Part shown: one piece after another, positions 4,168 through 24,293 of the stretch
How positions within the stretch are numbered: the stretch's first letter is position 1
Layout: the number at the start of each line of letters is the position of its first letter
Virus record (IMG/VR): IMGVR_UViG_3300008448_000588
Coordinates: 1 to 24,977 of that record
From: a virus
Taxonomy: Duplodnaviria; Caudoviricetes
Reading direction: 5' to 3' (one strand)
DNA length: 24,977 bases
The notes under the pieces: model-generated
The model's database searches: none
What the model was told of the DNA's origin: nothing
The model's input: the letters and a program-made list of their open reading frames with translations, nothing else
Program-made: the position numbers and the translations under genes

Positions 4168-4419
4168 TTATTCAAATGGAGGGGGTGTTGGTTTCGGCTC
4201 ATAAATAATAACATCTAAATCCTTAACCCATAAAAAGTCAGGATTAACTGTTTGTTCCATCTCTTCAATAGAGATTATCCAGTTTAAATTTAGGTCTTGA
4301 ATAGGATTGAAATAAGAGTCAGGTGCATACCATTGACCGACTAATTCGTCTTTCTGTACCTCTGTCAATAGTCCGACATAGGTTAACTTTTGTTCTGTTG
4401 TTAAATCTGTTAGTTTCAT
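4168..4419 (-). CDS. Hypothetical protein, partner of the adjacent repeat-domain virion protein
   Basis: 83 aa ORF overlapping the stop of 4416..6014 and sharing its atypical base composition. Confidence 0.65.
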   Translation of the reverse strand: MKLTDLTTEQKLTYVGLLTEVQKDELVGQWYAPDSYFNPIQDLNLNWIISIEEMEQTVNPDFLWVKDLDVIIYEPKPTPPPFE

Positions 4420-6014
4420 ACGTTTCTATTTAAAGCTGTATTAAAAGTTTGAACTCTATTTGTTAAATTAGTCGCTTCTGTATCGTCAAGTCCATCTCCT
4501 ATTGAGGCAAAAGCACATTCTCTATCTGTATAATAATTAAATCCTCCTGGATTATTATAAGCTAACAAGAATATATTAATATTATTTAATGTATTGCTTA
4601 AAGTTGAATCATTAAACAATACAGAACTATTACGGTACAATTTCATAGCTGTTGAATTAACTCTTGAAGCTATAAAAAACCCTTGCATATTTGGAGATGC
4701 TCCTGGACCTGCTTGTGCAGAGTTAACTGCTCGATATGCTGTATTTGCACCTGAAAATTTAGGAGCAATAAATAATCTACTATTATTATTAATATCATTA
4801 ACGCCCATTTCAACATTTTCAGATGTAGATGTATCAGTTCTTGAATAAAAAGATATATGAGTGCTATTCAAACTTAACACACTTGAAGGTGAAAGTTTAG
4901 TATCGGCATAACCATTAACGCCACCTAATAAACCTGTTGAACTATATGTTAATCCTCCGCTATAAGTTAATCTAAATGCAGCATCCGTATCTAATGGGTT
5001 TTTAAGATTAAATTTAAAGCTACTTGAAGACGAACCAACAAACGGATAAACCGCTTTCATCTTAGTCCACAAGCTATCAGCTTTTAATCCTATTACTAAA
5101 TTGTTTATTGCGTTAGCTTCTACTTGGTCAACTATACCTGCGTTAGTTACAAATGCTTGTGCATCAGCATCACTTACTGTTTGTGTGCCTATGCTACGTC
5201 CTAAAGTAGTTTGAAATGCTTGTACCGCTGTGTAAAAGTTAGCTGCTTCGGTTGAATCTAATGTATCTCCTAAAAATGCAAAAGCTAATGTTCCGTTGAA
5301 ATAAAGGTCTGCTGTTCCATTGTAATTTCTTGCACCTAAAAAAACTGCAAAAGCTGGTGCAACTTGATTTCCACCTGTGAATGAATTGATAGATGACCCG
5401 TTTCTGTACAATCTTGAAACTGTTAAACTATCTTTGTTTATATGCCAAAAACCAGTTGTATTTGCAACAAGATTAGTGCCTCCATTTATTAGGTCATTAT
5501 TAACCCAATAATAAGTAATATTATTTGAAAATTTTGGAATCAAACCAAAACCTTGAAATGCAGCATTCAAAGAACCAAATGTAGCAGAATCAGCTGTTAA
5601 ATTAGTCCTTGAATAAACACCACCGCTAACATTGCTTGTTGTGCTATTTACACTTGGCAACCATTTAGTGTTTGCATATCCATTTGTAGCAAATGTAATT
5701 CCATTGCTTGAATGAGTAACACCACCATGAAATGTCATTCTAAAGGCAGCGTCCGTATCTAAAGGATTCTTAAGGTTAAACTTATGAGCTGTACTTGTTC
5801 CACCTACCATTGGATATAAGGCTTCCATTTTACTCCAAATAGAATATCCTTTTAAGTCAACTACTAATTGATTAATAGCACTTTGTTGAGTAGGGTCTGT
5901 AATTGATGCAGCTGTTATAAATGCTTGGGCATCTGGATCAACTGCTCCTCCTGATGCAGTCCTCGCTAATATTCCGTGTGTTGCTAAAAACATACTATTT
6001 CCGTAACCTATCAT
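4416..6014 (-). CDS. Putative virion appendage / receptor-binding protein with two tandem ~255-aa beta-rich (possibly ConA/LamG-like) repeats
   Basis: DAQAF...AINxLVxxLK...W.KM.A.YP.VG...KFNLKNPLDTDAAFR...AFA..GD.LD.TEA.N....VQ.F.T.L.R occurs twice. Start taken at 6014 (ATGA overlap with the upstream stop). The fold assignment is inference. Confidence 0.6.
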   Translation of the reverse strand: MIGYGNSMFLATHGILARTASGGAVDPDAQAFITAASITDPTQQSAINQLVVDLKGYSIWSKMEALYPMVGGTSTAHKFNLKNPLDTDAAFRMTFHGGVTHSSNGITFATNGYANTKWLPSVNSTTSNVSGGVYSRTNLTADSATFGSLNAAFQGFGLIPKFSNNITYYWVNNDLINGGTNLVANTTGFWHINKDSLTVSRLYRNGSSINSFTGGNQVAPAFAVFLGARNYNGTADLYFNGTLAFAFLGDTLDSTEAANFYTAVQAFQTTLGRSIGTQTVSDADAQAFVTNAGIVDQVEANAINNLVIGLKADSLWTKMKAVYPFVGSSSSSFKFNLKNPLDTDAAFRLTYSGGLTYSSTGLLGGVNGYADTKLSPSSVLSLNSTHISFYSRTDTSTSENVEMGVNDINNNSRLFIAPKFSGANTAYRAVNSAQAGPGASPNMQGFFIASRVNSTAMKLYRNSSVLFNDSTLSNTLNNINIFLLAYNNPGGFNYYTDRECAFASIGDGLDDTEATNLTNRVQTFNTALNRNV

Positions 6015-6277
6015 AATACTAAACAAACTGATCCTGATACTAAATCAACTGCACTGAATTTCTGTGCCTCTGTTGGCCTGATGATTGCTCCAGCTTTCAC
6101 AGCTGTTCCTGTGGCTGCAATGTAACTTGATTTCACATCAACTCCTCCAATCTTGATGGAGTTGAATACTGTGTCCTCAAGCACAACAATGGCATCATGG
6201 AGAATTGTTTTCTCTGTTGTATCATTCACAATGAATGTTCCTTGACTTGCTGAAATTACACTTAAATCTGTACTCAT
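6011..6277 (-). CDS. Small hypothetical virion protein
   Basis: 88 aa beta-rich ORF in the structural operon with an A-rich start context. Confidence 0.65.
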   Translation of the reverse strand: MSTDLSVISASQGTFIVNDTTEKTILHDAIVVLEDTVFNSIKIGGVDVKSSYIAATGTAVKAGAIIRPTEAQKFSAVDLVSGSVCLVL

Positions 6278-19237: not shown

Positions 19238-19705
19238 TTACAAATGTAATGAAAAACTTTCATACCAAAGTACAAAAGAGTCAAAATCTTTTGCAATGTA
19301 ATATGTTCCTCCAGCTCTCTCAACATCTTGTTGATATGCTTTCTGAGCATCTGATTGCCTGTCTGAGCCATATTTCACCTCAATCTTAACTGATCGGCCT
19401 CTGATGGTTGCTGAGATATCAGCTGTGCCCTTGGTGCCTGTTCCTGGAGTCCACTTGCCAGGGAGTTGCTTGAATGTATCACCAACTTGTATCTTGTTGC
19501 CAGCTCTGTATTGCCCTTGATTGGAGATTCTCTCAGCTTGTCCTGACATTGCCTTGATCCAAAAGATAATGCACTTGGTCAGGTTGTTGGCTGAATTATC
19601 TTTCCAGTCAGTCAATGGAATCATCTCCTCTCTCATGGATGGATATCTCTCTTTCAGTTGCTCAAGCTCAAGGGCCTTGAGTTTATCTCTGTTGGCTTTG
19701 TTCAT
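19238..19705 (-). CDS. VRR-NUC-like PD-(D/E)XK nuclease (possible Holliday junction resolvase)
   Basis: KGTADI...IEVKYGSDRQSDAQKAYQ...AGGTY. The start is probably MNKANRD at 19705. Confidence 0.75.
   Translation of the reverse strand: MNKANRDKLKALELEQLKERYPSMREEMIPLTDWKDNSANNLTKCIIFWIKAMSGQAERISNQGQYRAGNKIQVGDTFKQLPGKWTPGTGTKGTADISATIRGRSVKIEVKYGSDRQSDAQKAYQQDVERAGGTYYIAKDFDSFVLWYESFSLHL
19241..19269 (-). promoter_or_regulatory. Bacteroidota-type promoter TTTG-N17-TACATTTG upstream of ERF
   Basis: -7 box at 19241-19248 and TTTG at 19266-19269. Confidence 0.5.
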
Positions 19706-19883
19706 AATCAGTGAATTTATTGAATTCATCCTCTGTCACTCTCTTGACATCAAATTGATTTGCATTTGTTGTGCAATTAGCTACAAAGTAGTGACCTTCC
19801 TCTTTTAGCTTATCCATAATATCAAAGAGAATTGTCTCATGCATATCCTCTCCGACCTCAATAATAAAGTATTTTTTTTCCAT
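19683..19883 (-). CDS. Hypothetical protein
   Basis: 66 aa ORF whose ATG is supplied by the 23-bp junction repeat. Confidence 0.65.
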   Translation of the reverse strand: MEKKYFIIEVGEDMHETILFDIMDKLKEEGHYFVANCTTNANQFDVKRVTEDEFNKFTDYEQSQQR

Positions 19884-19903
19884 CTTATTCTGATTTAAAG
19901 GTT
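19881..19903 (-). repeat. Gene-junction repeat copy 1 (AACCTTTAAATCAGAATAAGATG)
   Basis: Identical to 20064-20086. Confidence 0.9.
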
Positions 19904-19914
19904 AATAAAAAAAA

Positions 19915-20059
19915 TAGTCAGGACAGGATTCGAACCTGTATGCGCCCTCGTATCGGAACCTTTTAATTGTTTTTTGAGTGCGCTATCCGCAATCGAAATG
20001 TTTACGCCCTTACGGGTCTACTCATTCCTACTCAGCGTCTACCATTCCGCCACCTGACT
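19915..20059 (-). ncRNA. tRNA-like RNA with a greatly expanded anticodon/variable region, no assignable anticodon
   Basis: Acceptor stem AGTCAGG/CCTGACT-A, Leu-type D-arm GCGGAATGGTAGACGC, T-arm ACAGG-TTCGAAT-CCTGT, with ~95 nt between the D- and T-arms. No encoded CCA. Confidence 0.75.
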
Positions 20060-20063
20060 ATTT

Positions 20064-20086
20064 CATCTTATTCTGATTTAAAGGTT
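20064..20086 (-). repeat. Gene-junction repeat copy 2
   Basis: CATCTTATTCTGATTTAAAGGTT on the plus strand, directly upstream of the tRNA-like gene. Confidence 0.9.
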
Positions 20087-20197
20087 TTTATTTCTTTTTT
20101 TAAATAATTGGTAATACCAATAGTGAATTGCTATACAAAATCCTGAAACACTAATTGCTCCATAAACAATACAAAATCCAATATCTTCACTGCTCAT
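20078..20197 (-). CDS. 39-aa single-pass membrane peptide
   Basis: Hand-translated MSSEDIGFCIVYGAISVSGFCIAIHYWYYQLFKKRNKNL*. Starts in repeat copy 3 and stops in repeat copy 2. Confidence 0.6.
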   Translation of the reverse strand: MSSEDIGFCIVYGAISVSGFCIAIHYWYYQLFKKRNKNL

Positions 20198-20217
20198 TCT
20201 ATTCTGATTTAAAGGTT
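20195..20217 (-). repeat. Gene-junction repeat copy 3
   Basis: CATTCTATTCTGATTTAAAGGTT (21/23 identical), followed by AATAA as in copy 1. Confidence 0.9.
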
Positions 20218-20241
20218 AATAACTTCCGCAATTAAAACTGC

Positions 20242-20292
20242 GGATAACAGTCAGCAAGTGAAATTAAAACTTCACCTGCTTTGGTGTTAGCG
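20242..20292. mobile_element. attC-like site 1 (short, 51 bp)
   Basis: GGATAAC...AGCAAGTGAA/TTCACCTGCT...GTTAGCG. Confidence 0.6.
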
Positions 20293-20293
20293 G

Positions 20294-20524
20294 TCATTGC
20301 TTAGACCGATACGCATACCAATCAACACCACTACCATCTTCATACATTTTTGCACCAAGCAATTCGCCAAGCCTTAATGAAGCCTTTTCGTGTGGTTCAA
20401 TATCTTGGCAACAGCTACATCCTTCACTTGCGTAATAATCTGCAAAGGCTTGTCTAATTTCTTCCAGCAACGAACCGCTAACAAGTGGTTGTTGCAATGG
20501 CTGGTTTTGTTCTTCGTTTGGCAT
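20294..20524 (-). CDS. Cassette gene B, hypothetical protein (GCSCC motif)
   Basis: 76 aa. The ATG lies inside attC-like site 2 and the stop abuts site 1. Confidence 0.7.
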   Translation of the reverse strand: MPNEEQNQPLQQPLVSGSLLEEIRQAFADYYASEGCSCCQDIEPHEKASLRLGELLGAKMYEDGSGVDWYAYRSKQ

Positions 20525-20608
20525 TTTATTGTTATTTAAAAGTTAGTAATTCTATTTCAGTTTTGTGGTGAATTGTCGCCACTGACAACAACCGCCGATA
20601 CGTTAGGT
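20476..20608. mobile_element. attC-like site 2 (133 bp)
   Basis: CGCTAAC...GGTTGTTGCAATGGC (20487-20501) / GCCACTGACAACAACC (20578-20593, one extra base)...GTTAGGT. Confidence 0.75.
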
Positions 20609-20614
20609 GCAATA

Positions 20615-21025
20615 CTACTCATCGTAATAATTTGAAGGTTCTCGTTTCTTAATGAAATCTTTGCACCAAGTAACTATGTGGTTATTATATAACTCCGACA
20701 TTTCAGAAATTTCTTCTCCCCAATATTCTTCATCAGTAAAATACAATCGACCTTCCCAAACACCTCGCCAGCAAAATGAACCTTCAAATTTCTTCAAGCA
20801 TTTACCTTCTTCAAATATCTCTCTATCATCGGGCTCATTCTCTTTGTCTATGTAGCTAAATCCTTTTTTGCCAGTTGGTAAATGCTCCCAATCCTGCACA
20901 GGATATACTTCAAATTCTAAAGTGTGTGCATCTGTTTTGAAGTGAACCATATAGTCCATCATTCTAACCCGTACTGCACCTAACACTACATTGGCGTTAT
21001 TGCCTTTTTGTTTTTCGTTTGACAT
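20615..21025 (-). CDS. Cassette gene A, hypothetical protein
   Basis: 136 aa. The ATG lies inside attC-like site 3 and the stop abuts site 2. Confidence 0.75.
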   Translation of the reverse strand: MSNEKQKGNNANVVLGAVRVRMMDYMVHFKTDAHTLEFEVYPVQDWEHLPTGKKGFSYIDKENEPDDREIFEEGKCLKKFEGSFCWRGVWEGRLYFTDEEYWGEEISEMSELYNNHIVTWCKDFIKKREPSNYYDE

Positions 21026-21104
21026 TTTATTTATAATTTAAACATTTGTAATTCTAATCAAACTTTGTGCATCGGCAACAAACGCCAATGCTTTTCCGTT
21101 ACTC
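20978..21104. mobile_element. attC-like site 3 (127 bp)
   Basis: ACCTAAC...CATTGGCGTTATTGCC (20989-21004) / GGCAACAAACGCCAATG (21074-21090, one extra base)...GTTACTC. Confidence 0.75.
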
Positions 21105-21117
21105 TGATTTAAAGGTT
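21099..21117 (-). repeat. Gene-junction repeat copy 4 (truncated by attC-like site 3)
   Basis: TTACTCTGATTTAAAGGTT, encoding the TFKSE* end of the 67-aa gene. Confidence 0.85.
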
Positions 21118-21302
21118 TCGTTGTAGTATGTGTTAGGAATTAAATTATTTGGCACATCAATTCCATAAGCAGCACCATATACATACGCATTTTCTATCTG
21201 CTCCTTCTCCATTACTTTGGCTTGTTCAATAATATTCATTTCTTGTTCAGTTGCAAATATTTCTAATTTATCAACCAACCATTCTACTGCTGTCTGTTTC
21301 AT
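21099..21302 (-). CDS. Small hypothetical protein (MKQTAVEWL...EQAKxMEKEQI...YYNETFKSE type)
   Basis: 67 aa, ATGA-coupled to the primase stop. Confidence 0.75.
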   Translation of the reverse strand: MKQTAVEWLVDKLEIFATEQEMNIIEQAKVMEKEQIENAYVYGAAYGIDVPNNLIPNTYYNETFKSE

Positions 21303-23527
21303 TTTTTCTCTATTTTAGTTATCCAATTTATCACTGTCCTTCTGCTCACCTGGAGAATCTCTGATGCTGTTGTTCTGTTCAGTTCAGGATCTGATTGATA
21401 CATTGCCAGGAATTGCTCATATTTATTTGTGCCATGACTTGCCAATTTCCTTAGATCTGCCTTCTCTTGAGCATCTTGCTTGACAAGTTTACTCATATTG
21501 ACAAAGTAATCACTTAGCCTCTCAGCTCTCAATATCGCCTCCTCACATATTGACAAGGCATCTGATCCATCCTCTGAGCTTATAAGAATATTCAATATCA
21601 TTGCGAATCTTGGAATGTAGCTCTTTTGTTTTGGCAACATTGATTTCATATATTCATTTTCATCATCTGAATTCTGCATCTCAGATATCTTGTCATGTAT
21701 TCTGATCCATTGCTCATTGGCCTCATGAGAGAATCTTGTGACATGAGGAATGATCTCACCTTTCTCATCAGTTCTAAAAAAGTTCTTGGCAATTGATTCC
21801 TTGAGTCTGATCATAAAATTCTCATACCATGACATCAATTCATAATCAAGAACATTGGTGTTATATTTCTCAACAGATAGCTCTGGATAGCTTATCAGCA
21901 TCCTGTCAATGAATCCATTCTCCTTGTTCACTCCTGTTGCAAATTGCTCAAAGATATCTGGTTGAATACCTCCAATGACAGGAATGAATGGCTTGTCAAC
22001 AAATGCACTCTTGGATGTTTTTCTGTTCAGAGATATGCTCTGACCATTCCAGGATGACAACCAGAATTCAAGATCTGATCCAGCTCTGTACTTGTTCATG
22101 TCTTTAAACCATCCAGCAAGCTCATCCTTGAATACTCCAATGCAATTTGGATTGGTTTCATGCAAGTCAATCAATGCCTCCAGTGTGATATCACCAACAA
22201 TGAACTGTTCTGATCTTGGCTTTTTTATCTCCTCAGCATATTTCTTGGCATCCTTATCAAGCCTGTCATACTCAACATATTTGGCATATTCTTTCTGAAA
22301 TTCCTTTTGCTTTCTTATATTCAATTTCTGCAATGGAAAGATAATCTGATTTAAGCTTGGTGTCTTACCGATTCCTGGCTTTCCGACAACAGCAAGCCAC
22401 AATGTTGCTGTCTCTCTCCATCCTGGTTTGATTTCAACAATGAATGAGTTACCAATACAAACTGACATGGACCAAAGGAATGCACAGCCCATGTAATCAA
22501 TGGAGAGTCCAAGAGTCTGAGAGCTTTGGATTATGTATTGCTGGATCTCCTCGCTAAAAATATCAATAGGAAATTGCACTCTTTGAACATTAGTCTTGAG
22601 CTCAATAGGTTGTATCTTAATTTTTTTCTCTTTCCTGGCTCCATATCCTTGAGCATATATCTCTCTTGCTGATGCTGTGAAATCACCGTTATGACATTTA
22701 AATGTGTATGCCTTGAATGGTGTGATCAACTGCTCATGAGGATATATTGTGCCTGTTGAGAATAGATACATGCATCCAGTGTTCCTGTAAATATATCCAG
22801 AATGAGGAGATGTTCCTCCATTTCTCTTGATGATATCTTTGTCATGAGTCTTTGAGACAATTGTGAAATCATCAGAGATGATATCCCATATTGACACCCT
22901 CTCATTGTAATCTTGCCAAGGTGTTAATGTGCTTTCATATTGCTCAGTTACTTCCTCTTTCACCTCTTCATCACCAGTCCAGTTGTACATCTTGCAAATT
23001 GTCCAGAGTATTTCTCTGTCCTTGTCTGAGATATGCTTGACATCCAAGTATGTGAGCTCTGTGATGTTGTTAGTGTACACAACACAATATCCTCCCTTTC
23101 CTCTTGATTCAATCACAGCCTCTGAATGGTCCTTGAGTCTTGCAATCTTGGTGTTGCCTTGCACATTCTTGGTCTTGTATAGGATATGATATCCCTGATT
23201 GATTGTCTTGTAAATTGTGAACTTGAGATCAAAGTCATCAATGTTGTCTTTGAGTAACTGGAGGAATTCATTCCAGAAATCATTCTGCTCTTTGAGAGTT
23301 GCGAATACTTTGAGATCCACATCAATGACCTCAATCTCATTGTATCCAGTCAGAAAGCCAACATAATTAGCCTTGTCAGAATAGTATTTCTGTTCAAATT
23401 GTTCCTTGGTGAATGCCTTTTCTTGACATTCTTTCCAGGATCCAATTGGTCTTTTTAGATCATCAGAGACAATGAGAGAATATCCAATGTCAATAAGTTT
23501 CTTGGCATGTGTTAATGGTATTAGCAT
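21299..23527 (-). CDS. Bifunctional primase-polymerase (Prim-Pol) fused to a DUF3987-type helicase-like domain and a C-terminal HTH
   Basis: IEVIDVD, GYHILY and IESRGKGGY (AEP Prim-Pol); VGKPGIGKT, FKDELAGW, IGGIQP and NGFIDR (DUF3987); NRTTASEILQVSRRTVINWI (HTH). Confidence 0.85.
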   Translation of the reverse strand: MLIPLTHAKKLIDIGYSLIVSDDLKRPIGSWKECQEKAFTKEQFEQKYYSDKANYVGFLTGYNEIEVIDVDLKVFATLKEQNDFWNEFLQLLKDNIDDFDLKFTIYKTINQGYHILYKTKNVQGNTKIARLKDHSEAVIESRGKGGYCVVYTNNITELTYLDVKHISDKDREILWTICKMYNWTGDEEVKEEVTEQYESTLTPWQDYNERVSIWDIISDDFTIVSKTHDKDIIKRNGGTSPHSGYIYRNTGCMYLFSTGTIYPHEQLITPFKAYTFKCHNGDFTASAREIYAQGYGARKEKKIKIQPIELKTNVQRVQFPIDIFSEEIQQYIIQSSQTLGLSIDYMGCAFLWSMSVCIGNSFIVEIKPGWRETATLWLAVVGKPGIGKTPSLNQIIFPLQKLNIRKQKEFQKEYAKYVEYDRLDKDAKKYAEEIKKPRSEQFIVGDITLEALIDLHETNPNCIGVFKDELAGWFKDMNKYRAGSDLEFWLSSWNGQSISLNRKTSKSAFVDKPFIPVIGGIQPDIFEQFATGVNKENGFIDRMLISYPELSVEKYNTNVLDYELMSWYENFMIRLKESIAKNFFRTDEKGEIIPHVTRFSHEANEQWIRIHDKISEMQNSDDENEYMKSMLPKQKSYIPRFAMILNILISSEDGSDALSICEEAILRAERLSDYFVNMSKLVKQDAQEKADLRKLASHGTNKYEQFLAMYQSDPELNRTTASEILQVSRRTVINWITKIEKK

Positions 23528-23637: not shown

Positions 23638-23683
23638 ACAATAATTTGATTCTTGATTCATTTTTTTTATTTTTCTAGTTTAC

Positions 23684-23866
23684 TGTGAAATTCACACTAA
23701 ATTTCACACCTAATTTCACACCTAATTTCACACCTATTTTCTAATGTTTATAAGGCTTTCAGAGCCTTAGTGTGAAAATTTCACACCTGGAGAAAAAAAT
23801 AGTTTTTTTAATGTCTTTTAATTTTCTATTTTATCAGGTGTGAAATCCCTTTCACAGTTCACACCT
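23684..23866. repeat. Iteron-like cluster, probable replication origin
   Basis: AATTTCACACCT x3 in tandem (23700-23735), plus direct and inverted TTCACAC/GTGTGAA copies at 23684-23697, 23770-23788, 23836-23846 and 23850-23866, flanked by AT-rich tracts next to the primase gene. Confidence 0.75.
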
Positions 23867-24293
23867 TACTTAAAGTATTGATTTCAATAAACTTTGCAAC
23901 TATCTCATTCAGAGTTGTTTGACCTTCAAATGATTGTGCCATATCTTTGTCAATCTCCAGTGTGAAAGTGATGTCATAGTTCACACCTCTTTTTTTGATG
24001 GTCACTGGAATGTATTGCATTTCACATTCAAACATCAGGAGCTCATCCATCAATTGCTTGATTGTGTCCATATATCTCTGATCCTTGAGCTTGTACCATT
24101 TCTTGTGTTGCTTGATGCCATACAATACTGTTGCATGGTCCTTTCCAAATGCTCTGCCAATGGAACTGCACCCCATTCCTGTCCTGGATAGCAAGTAATA
24201 AAGATAGTATCTCTTGTAACATTCTGACTCTTGTCTATTGTTGTTGGCAAGATTGTACTTGTCAATCAAGTTGAGGAGGAATTCTCTTTTCAT
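23859..24293 (-). CDS. Protein with a DnaA C-terminal (domain IV)-like HTH
   Basis: SSIGRAFGKDHATVLYGIK matches the DnaA IGxxFgRDHxTV signature. No AAA+ domain. Confidence 0.75.
   Translation of the reverse strand: MKREFLLNLIDKYNLANNNRQESECYKRYYLYYLLSRTGMGCSSIGRAFGKDHATVLYGIKQHKKWYKLKDQRYMDTIKQLMDELLMFECEMQYIPVTIKKRGVNYDITFTLEIDKDMAQSFEGQTTLNEIVAKFIEINTLSKV

Follow-up and report, generated by a model that had tools for sequence, protein, structure and literature searches.

The locus and its genomic context

The window, that is, the whole stretch of DNA analysed here, is an entire virus record of 24,977 nt (78% complete), from a freshwater phage, that encodes a terminase, an Erf-like annealing protein, an exonuclease and a primase, with all Pfam-matched genes on the minus strand. 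The host would be a member of the Bacteroidota, because relatives of gene B (see below) occur in Cellulophaga phages and because 74 of the 80 genome matches listed for a site pattern carry Bacteroidota titles. Words of the window are present in RNA runs, at a fraction of 0.20 in one run and of 0.07-0.12 in five (two only guessed to be RNA).

The features of interest (Table 1) are three sites with TAAC...GTTA cores and two small genes that start within the loops of sites 3 and 2. The gene that contains MMDY is denoted here gene B, so that the letters are swapped relative to the earlier note. The block 20286-21097 is foreign to the phage backbone, given its observed/expected CpG ratio of 0.88 versus 0.09 for the backbone.

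Table 1. Features of the cassette locus (window coordinates)
Feature	Position	Strand	Remarks
Site 3, hairpin recombination site of cassette B	20981..21101	-	TAAC 21101-21098, GTTA 20984-20981; loop with A-rich leader and ATG 21025; missing from the empty alleles L489 and L505
Gene B	20615..21025	-	136 aa; MSNEKQK..VVLGAVRVRMMDY, first 14 codons inside site 3; phrog_38298, function without assignment
Cassette B unit, 496 bp	20602..21097	-	Site 3 and gene body; end arm 20606-20615 complementary to start arm 20971-20980
Site 2, hairpin site of cassette A	20479..20605	-	Loop with leader and ATG 20524; hairpin before an unrelated body in L361, leader before another in L355
Gene A	20294..20524	-	76 aa; MPNEEQN..LVSGSLLEE
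Cassette A unit, 316 bp	20286..20601	-	Site 2 and gene body; end arms complementary
Site 1, insertion point (attI-like role)	20245..20289	-	Short hairpin, A after TAAC on both strands; remains in empty alleles, takes other cassettes in L493
Mini-palindrome behind site 1	20215..20248	-	Resembles the gene-less 'empty cassettes' of other arrays
Left junction	21098..21113	-	Intergenic repeat of the backbone; the TAA of the TAAC core serves as stop codon of gene 21302-21099

Neither genes A and B nor the sites have matches in Pfam or Rfam, and gene A has none among the PHROGs; its relatives were found at three loci, one of them with an identical sequence. Gene B has 93 homologues, many without the site 3 leader; in annotated phages, a DNA search recovered only a 59-nt piece of it, in two Cellulophaga phages.

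Several other features of the window deserve mention. A short intergenic repeat (19889-19899, 20072-20082, 20203-20213 and 21103-21113) ends one gene and starts the next, and the small modules between its copies (genes, a tRNA-like unit, the site 1 module) vary among close relatives, the site 1 module being missing from L491, L492, L494, L495 and L508; these repeats represent a second shuffling system, which probably operates via homologous recombination. The 145-nt segment 19915-20059 on the minus strand gives a weak tRNA match, the only Rfam match in the scanned interval 19700-21400, and its part 19940-20035 is replaced in contigs by many differing inserts of about 20-40 nt, which suggests either a variable insert or unrelated tRNA-like genes with common ends. 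Short direct repeats upstream of the primase gene (23683-23735, 23838-23866 and 23960-23988) are possibly origin iterons. The 536-aa gene at 4416-6026 contains an internal duplication and has CpG and TpA above those of the backbone.

The mobile unit

Site 1 is present in four of the 80 loci collected through the neighbouring primase. L490 carries the window allele. In L489 and L505, the upstream stop codon joins site 1 directly, with exactly 812 bp absent and the junction inside TAAC; the missing block consists of hairpin plus gene B followed by hairpin plus gene A. On either side of the junction, L489 matches the window at 99.9-100% identity for 2.9 and 2.5 kb, and the only sequence that the empty and filled alleles have in common at the junction is the 4-nt core. 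In L493, two other hairpin-plus-body units occupy the same insertion point, and in three related phage records (L327, L153 and L283) the arrays are reshuffled as upstream hairpin plus body. Given the empty alleles and the replaced allele at site 1, the mobile unit appears to be the hairpin plus the gene that starts in it, inverted relative to classical cassettes. These alleles at a single site are what the present locus contributes. The first of two readings offered by the earlier note, in which the hairpin travels with its gene, the crossover falls at the plus-strand G|TT and the gene is inverted, is thus upheld by the empty and alternative alleles, by the reshuffled arrays and by the linkage described below; that site 1 is the insertion point had been missed.

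A contig joint between 20285 and 21098 is present in three of four runs, with four letters that fit both sides and depths of 237, 113 and 143 versus 376, 132 and 144 for the filled contig; the joint does not show if anything lies between the two positions, so that it may represent a replaced rather than an empty allele. No back-joint of the kind expected of a circle is among the 15 joints listed of 106. At 21099 on the plus strand, a loose contig end in runs X2 and X4 shows another leader at the insertion point. In L493 (3801-4356), residues that immediately precede a P-loop motif are encoded by the hairpin stem; a portion of the protein fold may therefore come from the site.

The association of genes with hairpins was examined in 379 cassettes from four pattern- or protein-based viral locus sets, the counts leaning toward the hairpin families whose patterns were used for the collection. 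Among 34 homologous cassette pairs, which are not independent of one another (one of 35 was dropped because of a common downstream neighbour), the upstream hairpin is at least 75% identical in 14 and the downstream hairpin in none, with an upstream lean in 13 of 16 families (p=0.003); the linkage between gene and hairpin that the earlier note had proposed to check accordingly lies on the upstream side. The 99 genome cassettes contain no homologous pairs for the equivalent chromosomal comparison.

The two ends of the cassette bodies are complementary at 4.9 of 6 positions versus 2.2 at random (379 cassettes); in 252 bodies examined, the pairing extends 11 nt past the core and includes a G.T at position 7. 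In 35 pairs, the changed end positions comprise 26 compensatory and 8 one-sided cases and none that is doubly changed and unpaired; in L004/L005 both arms of cassette B are altered in a compensatory manner. This covariation suggests that the end arms would pair in a putative excised circle. There are 41 viral cassette starts without a detected hairpin before them, most of which look by eye like decayed right arms.

Regrafting of leaders

The unit is not permanent: in 10 of 21 pairs of bodies with at least 80% amino acid identity the hairpins are unrelated, the register being kept in nine of the ten, and, conversely, hairpins at least 80% alike precede non-homologous bodies in 517 pairs. A site-type junction is present in 30 of the 93 gene B homologues, with varied leaders, and many of the others start on their own; the site 2 leader was found on three bodies. 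As judged from these comparisons, leaders have moved onto other bodies over longer times, which had escaped the earlier note.

All these observations could also be accommodated by a two-part device, in which the hairpin with its leader moves separately from the body and the recombinase, by cutting at both cores as a matter of routine, purposely builds fusions of leader and body. We consider such a device rather unlikely, given that the closest alleles always move hairpin and body jointly and that some of the swaps break off the core: in L150 the start arm mismatches its own end, and in L003 the arms of the upstream hairpin do not match. The leaders, moreover, are low-complexity and freely divergent, with no common protein motif seen among them. 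Because of the exchanges off the core, regrafting by homologous or microhomology recombination, followed by selection, is favoured over routine cutting at both cores.

Cassettes without a gene, which consist of two end arms and one conserved loop with covarying 5-nt stems, were observed in L435, L319/L274/L276, L275 (two) and L157 as well as at 20215-20248 of the window, and the ends of cassette A belong to the same class. Their loop also closes minimal hairpin sites including P12002L_attC1. A general origin of filled cassettes from the TCGT..ATG empty cassette was considered, but the case for it is weak, with 7 of 252 bodies (cassette A among them) of this class.

Loops, folding and detection of the sites

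The minus-strand loops of sites 3 (21069-21006) and 2 (20567-20505) are alike at 51 of 64 columns (score 86; mean 28 and maximum 50 in 2000 shuffles), and they are closer than 95% of random pairs of phage sites (score 69 versus a 95th percentile of 58); the stems are unlike (score 8). The homology of the loops, as opposed to the stems, thus stands as originally described, and so does the reading of both loop ATGs in frame through the cores (ORFs 21025-20615 and 20524-20294), the GTTA at 20984 being crossed in the register GTG TTA GGT and that at 20482 in the register GTT AGC GGT. Of 20 viral matches to the loop-ATG motif, 11 lie in full hairpins (two of them the window phage's own, and 10 opening an ORF of at least 60 aa), four are decayed or fused-looking sites and five are unrelated.

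A stem detector picks sites 1-3 in the window and, at scores of at least 25, 665 oriented sites in 1.67 Mb of loci versus one in a Markov null (one-third sample). Folded as RNA, sites 3 and 2 give z-scores of -4.4 and -2.1, and folded as DNA, -3.3/-2.9 and -0.3/-1.3, so that, going by energy alone, site 2 forms only a weak hairpin as DNA. The better folding as RNA, together with the presence of Erf-like and exonuclease genes, the lack of a tyrosine recombinase and the shuffling of genes between short intergenic repeats that already occurs in this phage, would fit hairpins that are RNA elements (stabilisers, terminators or translation control) on units moved by phage homologous recombination, with no site-specific recombinase involved. 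This possibility appears very improbable in view of the junction, where empty and filled alleles have only the 4-nt core in common, the covariation of cassette ends hundreds of bases apart and the chromosomal sites, which point the other way and adjoin a recombinase and an attI-like site (see below).

Probable start codons in the loops

In sites clustered to non-redundancy, with the window copies left out, the loop ATG is in the open frame at 80 of 93 sites, whereas permutations give 39 on average and 57 at most. Read-through is seen in 127 of 281 non-redundant long sites versus a permutation mean of 53; the conserved start module noted at sites 2 and 3 is common without being universal. On the opposite strand read-through drops to 18/372, versus 195/368. 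Start contexts were scored with a matrix built from 296 backbone starts; the median is 5.2 for 188 loop ATGs, 3.2 for the backbone starts themselves and -2.2 for 168 first internal ATGs, and in the window the two loop ATGs score 5.1 and 6.6 and the internal starts -6.3, -5.1 and -6.6. The earlier note had named internal starts and loop ATGs that are mostly out of frame as outcomes contrary to its proposal; the loop ATGs are in frame in the large majority of sites, and in the window they score from +5 to +7, against -5 to -7 for internal starts.

Of 68 non-redundant read-through proteins, 67 were compared with Pfam (gene B had been scanned earlier). In the 27 with a domain matched from its first six positions (the 40 without such a match at position 6 or earlier were left out), most of them DNA methyltransferases, the first internal ATG lies inside the domain in 18, and in 13 no ATG, GTG or TTG precedes the domain. 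In gene A, the first in-frame ATG beyond the core is only at residue 60. Short sites (<100 nt) behave differently, with read-through in 1 of 159 and an ORF with its own ATG following in 136 of 150. ATGs in good context are found in 216 of 335 phage loops versus 1 of 58 chromosomal loops, which indicates that the start module is an adaptation on the phage side; A-rich starts that lack a Shine-Dalgarno (SD) sequence and have A at -3 are the norm in Bacteroidota (PMC6847099). The hairpin loop thus likely supplies the true start codon and the first 14 residues.

That the loop ATGs are incidental and translation starts internally is hardly credible given the frame agreement, the context scores, the Pfam comparison and the chromosomal loops devoid of such ATGs, even though gene B has an ATG ATG 22 nt beyond the core, some of its homologues are called from internal ATGs, and an internal ATG lies within 45 nt of the core in 75 of the 168 read-through genes that have one. 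The second reading of the earlier note, a position-dependent expression switch in which cassettes have the classical orientation and the site of the upstream neighbour donates a start to whichever cassette follows, finds some encouragement in the symmetric TAAC..GTTA cores, which can be read either way, and in the effects of attI1 ORF-11 and of attC ORFs on downstream translation in class 1 integrons (PMC8876359). Its probability is close to nil, because agreement of frame in 80 of 93 sites compares with about 39 under random pairing, because the downstream hairpin is common to none of the 34 homologous pairs and because site 1 stays in the empty alleles L489 and L505 while sites 2 and 3 are gone; L493 contradicts it as well. 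The start codon borne by the cassette's own hairpin thus remains the preferred reading.

Anatomy of the sites and of the arrays

On the gene-sense strand of 365 sites, a G follows TAAC/AAC in 98%, and a 5/1 loop comes next; a C.A mismatch at 10/6 is present in 73%, a conserved T-A pair in 98% and, eight positions past that pair, a G.T at 19/15 in 76%. The first 24 positions of these sites contain no conserved bulge; sites 2 and 3 have single T bulges. A G after AAC is the rule at the cleaved box of attC on the bottom strand (PMC2727003), and its presence on the gene-sense strand here fits inverted genes. The AAC/GTT cores are conserved, inverted and accompanied by complementary cassette ends, and the R/Y pattern RYYYAAC/GTTRRRY is followed loosely. 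On the 3' side of the genes, the arrays end in a non-hairpin junction with a consensus of its own (42 of 59 junctions). Site 1 occupies the position of this terminal junction, but is a short-hairpin variant that matches the consensus only partly. A head site of the attI type is thus represented by the site 1 alleles and by the terminal junction in 42 phage array ends and in 4 of 7 recombinase-linked genome arrays.

The classical order, in which the top strand has the gene first and its site behind it, is seen in only 10 of 338 phage cassettes, the other 328 being inverted, whereas at the genome loci it prevails (53 of 77, versus 24). The sites lack classical attC character and, as described below, adjoin a recombinase that has no IntI insertion, two points absent from the earlier note. 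The array works like integron cassettes and, judged by integrase, bulge and orientation, is not a member of the integrons; the observed arrangement is real and mechanistically coherent.

A candidate recombinase and chromosomal arrays

No tyrosine recombinase is encoded in the window, in a complete relative or in two complete array-rich phages, so the enzyme would be supplied in trans. Sites of the window's hairpin type form arrays at genome loci, with the genes in classical orientation, and several of these arrays are headed by a tyrosine recombinase of 266-386 aa; in seven such arrays tested, the attI-like junction lies 93-148 nt from the recombinase in four and 2.2 kb away in one and was not found in two. 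Among 175 viral loci with sites, five phage contigs have a shorter recombinase behind the array, as does one further record, L488. In the cultured Polaribacter phage Leef_1, the recombinase follows the array, and gene 37 starts inside a hairpin.

None of nine array-linked recombinases reaches the 265-bit cut-off of the integron integrase model TIGR02249; they score 133-209 bits, each matching in two pieces. The array-linked enzymes fall below the cut-offs of TIGR02224 and TIGR02225 (XerC/XerD) as well, and two pass the archaeal XerA model; the alignment to archaeal XerA is continuous. In the region of the IntI insertion, the L004 enzyme falls about 43 residues short of VchIntIA (2A3V 175-243 corresponds to residues 169-194); I2, a domain specific to integrases, reads extrahelical bases (PMC4792948). 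Standard integron profiles miss this type of recombinase. An integron-like tyrosine recombinase of Bacteroidota that lacks I2 is likely to act on the sites, enzyme and sites being linked only through their adjacency.

The array might, finally, be an ordinary CALIN whose cassettes have classical attC sites and are mobilised by a true IntI that the host provides, as the loose fit of the cores to RYYYAAC/GTTRRRY and the published phage CALINs, one array of this family among them (PMC9892861), could suggest; such an origin can be given next to no probability, considering that none of the nine recombinases reaches TIGR02249, that a 5/1 loop and C.A and G.T mispairs take the place of conserved single-base bulges, and that the only hairpin of the family assayed with IntI1, P12002L_attC1 of Polaribacter phage P12002L (Qi et al. 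2023), gave no verified product according to the available part of that report, where attC2 did (PMC9892861). P12002L_attC1 is a short site of the present family (30008-30056, before a methyltransferase gene), and attC2 sits at what corresponds here to the terminal junction of the array.

Three further observations concern these arrays. In L005, L038, L154, L298, L300, L309, L323 and others, the place behind the attI-like junction that the recombinase occupies in other phages is taken by a recurring gene of about 60 aa (e.g. one starting MKLLTKTKVIRISE), whose product looks by eye like a small DNA-binding protein. On an Acinetobacter plasmid (NZ_CP090068.1; L570:5067-7230), a 45%-identical recombinase adjoins tet(X3), which has a terminal-type junction upstream and a truncated site downstream, the two ends mismatching each other; the arrangement suggests that tet(X3) passed through such an array. 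On a Chryseobacterium plasmid (NZ_CP041688.1; L571:7764-13563), the recombinase is followed by an array with two sites of the hairpin family, three copies of another 142-nt palindrome, an IS110 element and a group II intron.

A model of cassette movement and its implications

We consider it probable that the 812-bp block consists of two hairpin-plus-gene cassettes inserted at site 1, which is empty or refilled in near-identical phages, with the start codon and 14 residues likely provided by the loop and the cuts likely made by an integron-like tyrosine recombinase acting in trans. Under this model, the gene-sense strand would fold, with cleavage at TAA|C, which corresponds to G|TT on the plus strand. 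The cassette would leave as a circle with its two 11-nt end arms paired, and would re-enter either at site 1 or at a different hairpin. Since each gene is directed away from the site that belongs to it, this site forms the 5' part of the mRNA; the loops of phage sites have likely been reshaped into A-rich, SD-less initiation regions of the Bacteroidota type. Occasionally, leaders would be regrafted by homologous or microhomology recombination within loops and arms, an Erf-like annealing protein and an exonuclease being encoded by this phage, with selection keeping the frame.

The empty and alternative alleles of one phage show that phages swap accessory genes, many of them for DNA methyltransferases, as precise cassettes in which the recombination site is at once the gene's 5' end. 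Hairpin-borne starts would also account for the odd N-terminal extensions that make up a large class among the proteins of Bacteroidota phages. The formation of cassettes has been named an open question (PMC8618304); given that gene B occurs both as an ordinary and as a leader-fused gene, and that gene-less cassettes exist, the present arrays would offer a handle on it. A candidate enzyme without I2 is also relevant to the order in which I2 and attC arose, which has been called a puzzle (PMC4792948), and to the rarity of complete integron calls in this phylum, few having been reported in Bacteroidetes by IntegronFinder 2 (PMC9024848). More tentatively, a second, I2-less integron system, composed of a recombinase, an attI-like site and hairpins marked by mismatches and missed by the current finders, might exist in Bacteroidota and their phages and could be a sister or precursor of the true integrons; phage cassettes would be born when start-less bodies are grafted downstream of a start supplied by a hairpin, with paired end arms on either side. 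Were this true, cassette formation could be watched and tested in the cultured phage Leef_1.

Comparison with known systems

Integrons, and the sedentary chromosomal ones in particular, share with the present arrays the AAC/GTT hairpins, the G after AAC, the complementary cassette ends and a head site that forms no hairpin and adjoins a tyrosine recombinase; in addition, the sites of the chromosomal arrays are homogeneous, at about 126 nt, as they are in sedentary chromosomal integrons. The differences are that the recombinase here is devoid of I2 and misses TIGR02249, that the sites have a 5/1 loop and mispairs, that the arms pair over 11 nt, that in chromosomes the recombinase gene mostly runs in the same direction as the genes of the cassettes, and that the phage genes are inverted and start inside the site.

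As far as the available parts of the open-licence literature go, neither the layout nor the enzyme has been described, apart from a single cluster of attC sites in a phage, the CALIN of the virulent phage P12002L (PMC9892861); there the sites are treated as classical attC, and the accessible text is silent on inverted genes, on starts in loops and on a separate recombinase. Translation signals borne by sites are familiar from ORF-11, ORF-17 and ORF-18 of attI1 and from short attC ORFs, which mostly encode coupling peptides (PMC8876359); those ORFs sit in the fixed platform or in an upstream cassette, whereas here the gene's own site encodes the N-terminus and moves with the gene. CTXphi and other IMEX that exploit Xer (PMC4792948) resemble the present system in the use of a folded single strand and of an I2-less recombinase in trans, both of which are conjectural here, but in their case an entire phage integrates at dif through XerCD, whereas small cassettes enter arrays in the phages discussed here.
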